Positions 55,782 to 58,797 of a stretch of 64,000 nucleotides of DNA are shown here, in pieces (position 1 is the first letter of the stretch; every line of letters begins with the position of its first letter). The notes beneath the pieces were generated by a model. That model was not told the origin of the DNA. It did not search any database and saw only the letters and a list, made by a program, of their open reading frames with translations. The DNA lies in contig JBGPGO010000015.1 in the NCBI GenBank assembly GCA_041483895.1, positions 29,028 through 93,027 on the forward strand, given 5' to 3'. Both the position numbers and the translations under genes were made by a program. The stretch comes from Fimbriimonadia bacterium. Its GTDB lineage: Bacteria > Armatimonadota > Fimbriimonadia > Fimbriimonadales > JABRVX01.

Positions 55782-56921
55782 ATGCACAGTCAACAGCCCG
55801 GTCCGGGCGCCCTCTCAAACCTCGTCTATCGCCGCAAGGCCCGAACCCGCCGCTTCTCGAGCTGGGACCAGACCGGCGGCAATCGAGACTACTGGACCAT
55901 CCCCGCCGGCCAGTCCCGCACATTGGCAGAAATCAGCGTCCCCGGCTGCATCCGCCATATCTGGATCACTGTCGGGACGGAGAACCGGCAGTACCTCCGG
56001 AAGATGGTGCTGCGCGCATATTGGAATGGCGAAGACAGTCCGAGCATCCATTGCCCGTTGGGAGACTTTTTCTGCCTCGGCCACGGCATCGCACGCACGT
56101 TTTCTTGCATGCCGTTTGCCTGCGTAACCCCCGAGGAAAATAACGGAAAGTTTGGGGGCGGCACGGCGCTCAACTGCTATTTCGCTATGCCGTTCCACAA
56201 GGGTGCCCGGCTGGAAATCGTCAACGAATGCGAGGAAGAGGTGGGCTCCTTCTATTACTATGTTGACTATGAAGAGTGCGAGGTCCCGGAAGATGCCCTG
56301 CTGTTCCACGCGCATTACCGGCAGGAAATGCCAACCAAGGGCACGCGCGGCGATTTGAGCGCCGCCGGCACGAACTACTGGGACCTGATGGCGGAACCCA
56401 ACATCGGCGGAGAAGACAACTATCTGATTCTGGAGACCGAAGGCGCGGGACACTTTGTCGGCTGCAACATAAGCGTCGACAACATCGATCCCATGGTGTC
56501 CAAGAAGAAGGTCGGCGGCAAGGAGGTTCACGCGCACGAGCTGACCTGGTGGGGCGAGGGGGACGATATGTTCTTCATCGACGGCGAAAAGTGGCCGCCC
56601 AGCCTGCACGGCACCGGTTCAGAAGACTATTTCTCGCAGGCCTGGGGGATGCACCCGTACGCCTTCCCCTACTCGGGCACGAGCATCCCGGAGACCGACC
56701 CGCTGTTCAAGGATCGGAACATGTGCACCTCGTATCGGTTCCATGTCGAGGACCCAATCTGCTTCGAAAAGAGCCTTCGCTTCAGCATGGAACACGGGCA
56801 TGCCAACCTGCAGGAGAACGACTACTCCAGCGTCGCTTATTGGTACCAGACCCAGCGATCGCGGCCACTTCCCGGCCTGCCTCCGGTCCAGGAACGGATT
56901 CCCCGCTCCCAACGACGCTAG
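55782..56921 (+). CDS. DUF2961 / GH172-family protein, cytoplasmic
   Basis: SSWDQTGGNRD, IRHIWIT, PLGDFF, NCYFAMPF, WWGEGDD, HGTGSEDYF, EHGHAN. Confidence 0.88.
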   Translation: MHSQQPGPGALSNLVYRRKARTRRFSSWDQTGGNRDYWTIPAGQSRTLAEISVPGCIRHIWITVGTENRQYLRKMVLRAYWNGEDSPSIHCPLGDFFCLGHGIARTFSCMPFACVTPEENNGKFGGGTALNCYFAMPFHKGARLEIVNECEEEVGSFYYYVDYEECEVPEDALLFHAHYRQEMPTKGTRGDLSAAGTNYWDLMAEPNIGGEDNYLILETEGAGHFVGCNISVDNIDPMVSKKKVGGKEVHAHELTWWGEGDDMFFIDGEKWPPSLHGTGSEDYFSQAWGMHPYAFPYSGTSIPETDPLFKDRNMCTSYRFHVEDPICFEKSLRFSMEHGHANLQENDYSSVAYWYQTQRSRPLPGLPPVQERIPRSQRR

Positions 56922-56974
56922 CGCAGTCATTCCGAAGCGTAGCGAGGAATCCCTTGTGTGTTATTCTTATCCCG

Positions 56975-57140
56975 AAATCTAGTCACTAGGAACCCGGCCT
57001 CGATCTGTGCTCGAAGGAATCCCTGGCAGCCAGTTCCGGGTTGAAAGATTGAGCCCGAGGCCGGGGGTGTCCGTTCGAGGGACAGCATTGTGAGACCCGG
57101 CTGAAAAAATGCCGGTGCTCTCGTACACAAGGTAATTTGA
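56975..57140 (+). ncRNA. Putative IS110 bridge RNA in the left non-coding end (boundaries approximate)
   Basis: Stem 56993-57002/57056-57065 encloses AGGAATCCCT (= left target flank) and TTCCGGG (about the reverse complement of CTCGGAA); a second loop has ACAGCATT and ACACAAG (= reverse complement of CTTGTGT, the element left end). Confidence 0.7.
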
Positions 57141-57174
57141 GGATACCCAATTGGTGACGGAAACGGGGTTTTTC

Positions 57175-58032
57175 ATGAAAGTCTTTCTCGGTATCGACAT
57201 TTCCAAAGCCACCTTTGCGGCCGCCGCACACAAGGATGCGGAGCTGTTGATGGAGGCCACGGGAAGCTACTATTTTCTCCTTGCCGATATGGCCTTTTCG
57301 ATGGGGATTTCGGTGTTTGTGGTCAATCCGAGGTTTGCCAAGCGGTACCGCGAATTCTGTTCCCCTCGGGCCAAGACGGACCGCGTGGACGCCACTGCGC
57401 TCGCCCGCATGCTCGAACGGGAGCGCGACGATCTTAGGGCCTATCGGCCGCTTCCGCCCTCCGTTCGCATCATGATCTCCATGCTGCGCCGGCGCCACCG
57501 AGTGATTCAGGGCAAGCAGAAGATCGTCATGAGCCTTGGAAGCGAGCCGGCTTTCAAAAAGGATGTCAAAGCGATTACCGCACGGCTTGACGCCATGCTC
57601 AAAGGGATGGAGCAGAAGATCGAGGAGTTGGCAAAGGAGCTGCCGGGATACAAGAACCTGATGAGCATCAAAGGTATCGGCCTGCTGTCGGCCGCCTCGC
57701 TGATCGGCTGTTTCGAGCGCGGAGAGTTCAAAACGGCGGACGCTCTGGTCGCCTATCTGGGGCTAGACACCAAAGCCTGTGATTCCAGTCAGAAGAAAGG
57801 GAAACGGCGCCTGTCGAAGGCGGGAGACGCGTGCACGCGCGGCATTTTGTACATGGCCGCCAAGTCCGCGTCCCAAACCGCGGAGTTTCGAGACTATTAC
57901 CAAAGCCTGAAATCCCGAGGCCTCAAAGCGACTGAGGCCCTCGTCGTCCTGATGAGAAAACTGGTCCGCATCGCCTGGGCGCTCTATACCTATAACCGAA
58001 CTTTCGAGCCAAAAGTCGTAGAAGGCTATTGA
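57175..58032 (+). CDS. IS110-family DEDD transposase/recombinase, N-terminal domain shortened
   Basis: LGIDISK, MEATG, VVNP, KTDRVDA, SIKGIG, AYLGL..DSS, RRLSKAG, MRKL. Confidence 0.88.
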   Translation: MKVFLGIDISKATFAAAAHKDAELLMEATGSYYFLLADMAFSMGISVFVVNPRFAKRYREFCSPRAKTDRVDATALARMLERERDDLRAYRPLPPSVRIMISMLRRRHRVIQGKQKIVMSLGSEPAFKKDVKAITARLDAMLKGMEQKIEELAKELPGYKNLMSIKGIGLLSAASLIGCFERGEFKTADALVAYLGLDTKACDSSQKKGKRRLSKAGDACTRGILYMAAKSASQTAEFRDYYQSLKSRGLKATEALVVLMRKLVRIAWALYTYNRTFEPKVVEGY

Positions 58033-58155
58033 CATCCGACCATAGAAACTCGGAATGACAACGTTATCGTTGCTCCTTGCTAGCTAGCAACGCTGGAACA
58101 ACCGGCAAGGGTGCCATTGCGGCTGCGGGGATGATTTGATACCATAATCCCACCT

Positions 58156-58797
58156 ATGCTTTGGTTTGCCATCCTGCTCCCCGTTATGCACGCCGCACCC
58201 GGCCATCGGTCCGCTGTCGTCGCGGACACGGCCGTCTTCTTCGATGCTTTCGATGCGACCGGTCTCCTGACCGAGTCGCTCGTTGATTGCCTTCGATGCG
58301 ACCGGTCTCCCGACCGAGTCGCCTTGGATGCGGCCAGTCTCCTGACCGAGTCGCCTTTCGGCACACTCCGAACAGAGCTGCGCGCAACCCGGTCCGGTGC
58401 GCTGATGGAAGGCGGAAAGCCGCGCTTCGCCGTCTCCGGCCCGCTTAGCGGCATCCACACTCCGTCCTTCACCATCATTCGGAACGAGGAGCAGTTGCGG
58501 AGCGTCTGGGAAAAGCACTGCGACGAGCGCATCGGCCACCCGGCCCCGCCGCCGATTGACTTTAGGAGTCGGATGTTTATCGCCTACTTCGCCGGGGACC
58601 AGCCGGGGGGCGTCCGGGCCACCATCCGGGCCTACCAGGGCGCAAACGGTATCTATGCGGTGCCAGAGTTGGACGCACCCAGCGGCGCTTATCCCGAAGC
58701 GAGGACCCAGCCGTATGTATTCTATGAACTTCCGGCGGAGACGGCGATTGTGGGCAGCGTTGCCCTTCGCTCGGGAGACCTCGGACGGACGAAATAG
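58156..58797 (+). CDS. Secreted protein with a PrcB C-terminal-like domain, carrying three in-gene hairpin repeats
   Basis: IIRNEEQLRSVWEKH..PPIDF..IAYFAGDQPGG..TQPYVF; signal peptide. Confidence 0.6.
   Translation: MLWFAILLPVMHAAPGHRSAVVADTAVFFDAFDATGLLTESLVDCLRCDRSPDRVALDAASLLTESPFGTLRTELRATRSGALMEGGKPRFAVSGPLSGIHTPSFTIIRNEEQLRSVWEKHCDERIGHPAPPPIDFRSRMFIAYFAGDQPGGVRATIRAYQGANGIYAVPELDAPSGAYPEARTQPYVFYELPAETAIVGSVALRSGDLGRTK
58249..58354. repeat. Three copies of a 31-bp hairpin repeat
   Basis: TTCGATGCGACCGGTCTCCTGACCGAGTCGC at 58249, 58292 and 58324 (1-3 mismatches). Confidence 0.85.

Follow-up and report, generated by a model that had tools for sequence, protein, structure and literature searches.

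Results

A fusion of two IS110 elements

The IS110 element at positions 56953-58050 of the window (the whole stretch of DNA that was analysed, 64,000 nucleotides) is very likely a fusion of two different IS110 elements, here called b on the left and c, from an unrelated clade, on the right. Positions 56955-57229 contain the left end and 26 codons of b, a multi-copy element of the IS621 clade with a recombinase of 328 residues (P0070), and positions 57230-58050 belong to clade c, which supplies both the right end and the 3' part of the gene. This division follows from the N-terminus that P0070 shares with the window protein, from the right end, which fits clade c, and from the clade-c left ends, which differ from that of the window copy. 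The left end does encode a readable, predicted guide RNA, but this RNA is derived from the multi-copy parent b. The window copy itself is most likely an immobile, defective two-clade chimera, as its fusion protein lacks part of the RuvC fold, its donor guide misfits the right end, and its junction promoter is mis-spaced. At most, it may supply some b-type RNA via read-through. Parent b would insert in host REPs by an already known mechanism and is a further member of the known IS621-type bridge system. An earlier note on this DNA had instead proposed one intact new orthologue with the target GGAATCC-CT-CGGAA, a compact target loop and the donor ATAGAAA-CT-TGTGT, a model to which we give almost no credence in view of the gene, the guides and the sister copies described below.

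The window protein scores above the cut-offs of PF01548, PF02371 and NF033542 and keeps D16, E35, D77, D80 and S212 (the DEDD residues of RuvC and the Tnp catalytic serine), as does parent P0070. An open frame with DEDD and serine residues speaks for an intact orthologue, but the gene is a fusion. Its first 26 codons (57151..57229, plus strand, likely start ATG at 57175), including the first catalytic Asp, encode the N-terminus of P0266 without a difference and that of P0070 with one residue changed. The remaining ~265 codons (57230..58032, plus strand), fused in frame, are the 3' part of a clade-c recombinase gene and keep E35, D77, D80 and S212, with H41Y and G213S relative to the family. 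Over its whole length the protein is only 28% identical to P0070, and it is ~40% identical to a family of 317-aa proteins; the alignment with these opens a gap of 24 residues behind residue 27. Between 24 and 33 residues of RuvC have been lost in the in-frame fusion, and the RuvC fold is incomplete: the D-to-E spacing is 19, compared with 41-43 in 48/48 clade-c proteins measured, 48 in parent b and 49 in IS621. In the predicted structure, residues 1-30 have low confidence (block pLDDT 42, 63, 51). A simple 72-nt internal deletion of one gene was ruled out by run contigs that continue as b and by the comparison with P0070.

We also considered a chimera that still moves, either as a functional hybrid element or with b mobilising it in trans via donor half-matching. 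The open frame, the kept catalytic residues and the intact right donor are consistent with this, and ISPpu10 is reported to act in trans on split ends (10.64898/2026.03.19.712850). We find it quite improbable, as the element is present as a single copy, H41Y and G213S hit positions kept in 56/56 and 55/56 relatives, and the lost RuvC stretch holds the R27/H28/T30 donor-loop contacts in IS621 (PMC11208158). Moreover, IS621 is described as tolerating donor mismatches poorly (PMC11208160) and as requiring both donor arms for excision (10.64898/2026.08.31.748434). The cluster of the fusion protein has two members from separate assemblies, the second being P0264. A single-protein scan of the genome contigs revealed no relative, and a search of 41 related genomes with the window protein returned only the window itself and one 25%-identical match; an IS110 family search across 228 genomes of the class gave 53 matches, which lie outside the loci compared here, and none of our conclusions draws on the unpublished genome G036.

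Support for the junction in the assemblies

Contigs of four sediment runs have a loose end at 57229 in 4/4, and a deeper contig of ~1 kb continues as the b gene; depth in these runs does not measure copy number, and the source sample may be among the four. The window form across 57229 is spanned by contigs of runs X2 (57171-57881) and X3 (57171-57467). The join of the b left end, a collapsed repeat, to a fragment of c might be an error of assembly: the letters at 57027, 57030 and 57038 are found in none of the four runs, and no listed run contig spans the whole stretch. This artefact is very improbable, since contigs of two studies (again, one run may be the source) cross 57229 with 59 letters on its left and no differences, contigs of two runs span the right junction, and a separate assembly yields the same fusion protein. 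A different repeat lies further downstream at 58243-58349 (GATGCGACCGGTCTCC..GACCGAGTCGC-type, about three copies), in frame in the ORF 58156-58797; it is very deep in 4/4 runs and is also found at several contig ends.

Parent element b and its sister copies

Sister left ends of b are found at the starts of contigs C3, C7 and C34; in all three the insertion point is the same base of a REP arm, as in the window. The left CT core (56953..56954, plus strand) has the same junction in 5/5 left ends of the assembly, and a CT core is present at all b ends. The three right ends of b (one on C4 and two on C13) read ACAAGACAGCAT-CT-TTCAGAA, followed by the rest of the REP dimer, and two of them pair with left ends through mirrored REP arms (C7/C4 and C3/C13). 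The ends are thus not uniform across copies, as three sister copies end in ACAAGACAGCAT-CT-TTCAG, unlike the window copy; such a difference had been named in the earlier note as evidence against its own model.

The 39-residue C-terminus encoded at the C13 end retrieved P0070 at 100% identity. P0070 begins with the first 26 residues of the window protein (one residue off), then continues as the loose end predicts, and unites the window N-terminus with the C-termini encoded at the contig ends of C13 and C4 (39/39, 38/38 and 38/38 aa). The P0070 cluster has six members, and the identity of P0070 to the other clusters found does not exceed 41%. We note that intact b was reconstructed from a database protein, the ends of contigs and a loose end of 30 nt, and that the body of b is absent from the assembly. 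The exact 27-nt left-end pattern had 0 matches in metagenome contigs.

A mini-copy of b is found on contig C16 (L006, G000:C16:14613-14727, minus strand), where 24 nt of the left end lie inside an intact REP dimer. It holds both flanks in one contig (GGAATCC-CT ... CT-TTCAGAA). The mini-copy ends at an internal ATCT that matches the ATCT of the right end, which looks, from its sequence, like an imprecise excision or a microhomology deletion.

A second multi-copy IS621-type element, a, has left ends on contigs C12, C14, C15 and C25 and right ends on C4, C14, C21, C22, C31 and C33 of the same genome (G000), with the pairing of the ends deduced rather than read. Its left donor is ACAGCAT, as in b, and its target is about CCCGCGG-CT-AC[AC]. 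The left end contains TCCCGCGGCT followed 24 nt later by TGTAG, and the junction promoter spacing is 18. Because a and b have this donor in common, cross-talk between them could occur.

The predicted bridge RNA in the left end

The left non-coding end of b (56955..57150, plus strand) begins with the right donor TGTGT, carries a -10 box TATTCT at 56962-67, and would encode the bridge RNA. Compared over 156 nt with its sister end on contig C3, it shows five differences, one of them in the flank. The left end folds with z = -2.7, and a comparison with Rfam gave no match at E <= 1. A left target guide, a right donor guide and a CT core are all present, consistent with the proposal of an IS621-type bridge RNA at this place. 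Its transcription, its binding by the recombinase and its guiding of recombination are predicted for b.

The target-binding loop lies at 56993..57065 (plus strand). The 10-bp stem noted earlier at 56993-57002/57056-57065 indeed encloses it, and within it are a left guide (57015/16-57024), an inner hairpin (57023-28/57035-40) and the right guide TTGAAAG (57041-47). The left guide AGGAATCCCT at 57015-24 is identical to 56945-54 at 10/10 positions, as had been claimed, and 0/2000 dinucleotide shuffles of 56975-57150, our test for chance matches, reach this value. The predicted right target guide is TTGAAAG, which ends 23 nt after the left guide. TGAAAG alone is reached somewhere in 11.5% of shuffles, and the support for it is its position: the guide ends are 22 nt apart in IS621 (guides A50-U58 and G77-G80; PMC11208158, Hiraizumi 2024, with the sequence from PMC11208160, Durrant 2024) and 22-25 nt apart in 18/24 relatives.

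These relatives were obtained from 80 loci, of which 47 have a donor match and 24 of those also a left-guide match of at least 7/9; 33/80 loci had no donor match, 23 more had no target-guide match, and 2 of the 24 used were mis-assigned. In the 18 loci mentioned, 22-25 nt separate the end of the left guide from that of the best right guide; a distance of 16 nt is seen in 0/24. Half of the usable loci (12/24) match at 9/9 with differing targets, which indicates that guides covary with targets among homologues, as the earlier note had anticipated.

The right guide proposed before, TTCCGGG (57034-40), fits the right flank at 6/7, which was a point in favour of the intact orthologue, but 29% of shuffles reach this value, so the match is at chance level. 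It hinges on base 57038, which is different in 3/3 long sister left ends and in 4/4 runs. TTCCGGG is rejected as the right guide: in the sister copies this sequence is the arm of the inner hairpin, and none of the 24 relatives places a guide end 16 nt on. The compact loop with 9 nt between guides falls with it, as the spacing is canonical. With the letters of the sister copy, the unconstrained fold gives the left guide, the hairpin 57023-28/57035-40 and a single-stranded TTGAAAG, which is the canonical target loop; this is not the unconstrained fold for the window's letters. The inner hairpin is disrupted by the window letters at 57027, 57030 and 57038, which, as they are seen in no sister end and in no run, are strain-private or assembly errors.

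The donor-binding loop, taken from the fold, lies at 57066..57148 (plus strand), with the left donor guide ACAGCAT(T) at 57082-89 and the right donor guide (T)ACACAAG at 57124/25-31. ACACAAG at 57125-31 is the complement of CT-TGTGT at 7/7, in line with the earlier claim, and 0.25% of shuffles reach this match. The left donor guide ACAGCAT fits the right end of b at 7/7 (0.15% of shuffles) and the right end of the window copy at only 4/7. The donor encoded by the RNA is therefore ACAGCAT-CT-TGTGT and not the previously suggested circle junction ATAGAAA-CT-TGTGT. For parent b, the guides fit flanks and ends at 10/10, 6/7 plus one G-U, 7/7 and 7/7 (ends on C3, C7, C34, C4, C13 and the C16 mini-copy). 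In the window copy, the left guide fits its own flank at 10/10, whereas the right guide TTGAAAG misfits the CT-CGGAA flank.

By sequence, the joined ends of b give a junction promoter TTGACA-18-TATTCT, compared with a spacing of 20 or 23 for the chimera. A promoter scan of the integrated locus found 0 sites. The IS621 bridge RNA is reported to be weakly expressed from integrated loci (PMC13626964). A DUF2961 gene (55782-56921) on the same strand ends 4 nt before the REP arm, and read-through from it could transcribe the bridge RNA region.

The REP target of b and the flanks of the window copy

The element is preceded by the 5' arm of a CGTC-like, head-to-head REP dimer (56926..56952, plus strand), the last 7 nt of which, GGAATCC, are the left target of b. 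This flank belongs to a family with 77 arm matches genome-wide, in agreement with the REP-like target recognised earlier. The 25 complete REP units consist of two inverted arms separated by 31-87 nt; 13/25 are perfect mirrors and 12/25 have unlike arms, so the REP sequence to the right of the window copy can belong with the left arm. The REP arm folds weakly (a 5-bp stem plus two pairs, -2.1 kcal/mol), and the hairpin includes the left target of b.

In the 3.95-Mb assembly, GGAATCCCTTTC occurs 46 times, GGAATCCCTTTCAG 18 times, and GGAATCCCTCGGAA is absent. After GGAATCCCT the genome usually continues with TTC (n=46) and never with CGGAA. The target GGAATCC-CT-CGGAA of the intact-orthologue model is thus absent from the genome (0, against 46 for GGAATCCCTTTC), and its right half should read TTCAG. 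The natural target of b, as read from the sister copies and the C16 mini-copy, is GGAATCC-CT-TTCAG, at the tail of a CGTC-like REP dimer arm.

The right CT core at 58049..58050 (plus strand), the insertion site of clade c, is spanned by contigs of runs X1 and X3. Both CT cores of the window copy (56953-54 and 58049-50) are thereby placed as the earlier note had read them. After the right core, a REP dimer contributes the final 9 nt of its 3' arm (CGGAATGAC, 58051..58059, plus strand), which we take as the right target of c; CTCGGAATGAC occurs 37 times in the genome. Joining the flanks without the element does form a palindrome-like string of 38 nt, as the intact-orthologue model holds, but this is not an empty site. 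Read as sequence, the joined flanks are the inner tail of one REP arm and the last 9 nt of the opposite arm. No empty site results, because complete units carry 31-87 nt between their arms and CGGAA never follows GGAATCCCT.

The layout of these repeats fits CGTC-class REP dimers, with a CGTC/TGTC tag, an AT-first stem, a short tail and a head-to-head arrangement. The main text of Di Nocera 2013 (PMC3733652) describes CGTC-class REPs with a TGTC/CGTC tag, a stem starting with AT, a short CC-type tail and head-to-head dimers, in which spacers of tens of bases and mixed arms occur; families CGTC-1 to -4 have a stem of 8-9 bp and a loop of 4-5 nt. The host repeats share the tag, the AT-first stem, the short tail, the head-to-head dimers and the mixed-arm dimers, but their arms have an interrupted stem, and the class is assigned without a subfamily. 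IS110 is nowhere mentioned in that main text.

Clade c and the proposed origin of the chimera

The right end of clade c (58029..58048, plus strand) contains a -35 box TTGACA and the left donor ATAGAAA (ATAGAAT in the family), and is the single such end in the assembly. CATAGAA[T/C]CT is found at the right end of 78/79 clade-c loci, matching the right end of the window copy. The left ends of clade c are unlike that of the window copy, as 76/79 begin with CTTGTATG. They rarely hold ATAGAAT verbatim; a GATGAGGAAT-like motif, present in 50/79 loci (L012-L090), may be the left donor guide with wobbles. In a Wenzhouxiangellaceae genome, REP-like palindromes follow two clade-c elements (L022, L023), which suggests that clade c also includes REP-targeting members. 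In another locus (L050), a clade-c IS110 lies inside the coding sequence of another IS110 recombinase gene and is a natural nested IS110.

According to our model, b would excise as a circle whose junction, ACAGCAT-CT-TGTGT, forms a sigma-70-like promoter (TTGACA-18-TATTCT), as suggested by IS621 biochemistry. The donor loop of its RNA would pair with the circle junction and the target loop (GGAATCCCT, hairpin, TTGAAAG) with GGAATCC-CT-TTCAG in the inner tail of REP arms, and recombinase b would then insert the circle at the CT. For the window copy, the simplest history places b and c in one REP dimer and in like orientation, b having inserted at the 5' arm's tail and c at a CT close to where the 3' arm ends. 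The two would then have been joined by a deletion that began in codon 27 of b and reached about codon 50 of c; lost with it would be some 0.9 kb of b, the interior of the REP, and the left end of c with its bridge RNA. As the assembly contains no intact c element, no c left end and no second clade-c copy, we infer the left half of the c target and the same-dimer arrangement. A counter-point to fusion by deletion is that all five catalytic residues are still encoded in a single open frame; a random deletion would not usually leave this, the chance from frame alone being ~1 in 3. In two genomes of the same family (G001 and G002), unrelated DNA or the end of a contig comes after the orthologue of the upstream gene, and for the downstream gene there are only weak matches.

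The fusion junction at 57229/57230 may hold a trace of a different route. The minus strand at 57227..57234 carries CT-TGTGTG, with which the left end of b, core included, begins; these 8 nt are a possible relic of an inverted b end. The longer junction, CCGCAT-C-CT-TGTGTG, resembles the b donor (ACAGCAT-CT-TGTGTG) with one extra base. This likeness may be a relic of an inverted half-match insertion, or chance. In this variant recombinase b itself would have made the fusion: a b circle could have inserted reversed into the c gene at a donor-like half-site, after which the inverted repeat was deleted at a 3-nt overlap. In favour of it, only 40 occurrences of the 8-mer were counted in 7.9 Mb (both strands), the junction residue is Pro in 47/56 clade-c proteins and His here, half-match insertion has been described for IS621 (10.64898/2026.08.31.748434), and the nested L050 offers a parallel. 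We regard this route as possible but rather unlikely. The likeness was noticed post hoc and needs the extra C, 3/8 nt belong to the gene of b itself, AAG could be a Lys codon of c itself, and the native c gene may already read ACAAGGAT at the junction. Both routes lead to the fusion of b and c described above.

Discussion

Parent b has its closest known counterparts in the bridge recombinases IS621 of E. coli and ISCro4, both of the IS110 group. Its recombinase matches ISCro4 (E 4.7e-46) and IS621 (E 3.6e-44) over the full length, and b shares with them a long left end, a short right end, the CT core, a REP target, and the order of left guide, hairpin and right guide ending in AG-ATT. The donors are similar as well (ACAGCAT-CT-TGTGT in b and ACAGTAT-CT-TGTAT in IS621). 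In contrast to IS621 and ISCro4, b has GGAATCC-CT-TTCAG as its target, its right target guide is naturally 6-7 nt long instead of 4, its right donor guide is a continuous 7-8 nt, and its left donor guide has U for C at the core position. The window copy differs further in being fused with another clade. ISPpu10 and ISPpu9 of Pseudomonas putida are likewise reported as IS110 elements that insert in REPs (10.64898/2026.03.19.712850; PMC12288879). The left target of ISPpu10 is described in the 5' stem-loop (10.64898/2026.03.19.712850), and that of b lies, by predicted fold, in the REP arm hairpin. The host and the REP class of b are different from those of ISPpu10 and ISPpu9, and clade c is named here without an IS clade.

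Parent b could already be among the orthologues catalogued in PMC11208160. In the literature, covered mostly as titles and abstract openings and hence giving a weak negative, we found no description of the window element itself or of a natural in-frame chimera of two IS110 clades.

The intact parent P0070 is a reasonable orthologue for a bridge-recombinase screen, because all four guides of b are readable, its right target guide is naturally long, and three insertions are found at one base of the host REP; the window gene is not the one to test. The window copy is also a cautionary case, as the flanks of a single IS110 copy, when joined, can yield a false empty site and a false guide if the copy is a fusion.

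The chimera might further be a snapshot of recombinase-driven module swapping, in which two clades converge on different CT sites of one REP family, half-match recombination (as the possible inverted donor relic and the C16 mini-copy would suggest) grafts the bridge-RNA end of one clade in frame onto the gene and right end of the other, and the hybrid is still open to mobilisation, or a few changes in its guides would rescue it. We hold this to be improbable; if true, module swapping would be a natural route for re-pairing bridge RNAs and recombinases. Together with the C16 mini-copy, the chimera can be viewed as a natural product of the sloppy recombination recently described for IS621.
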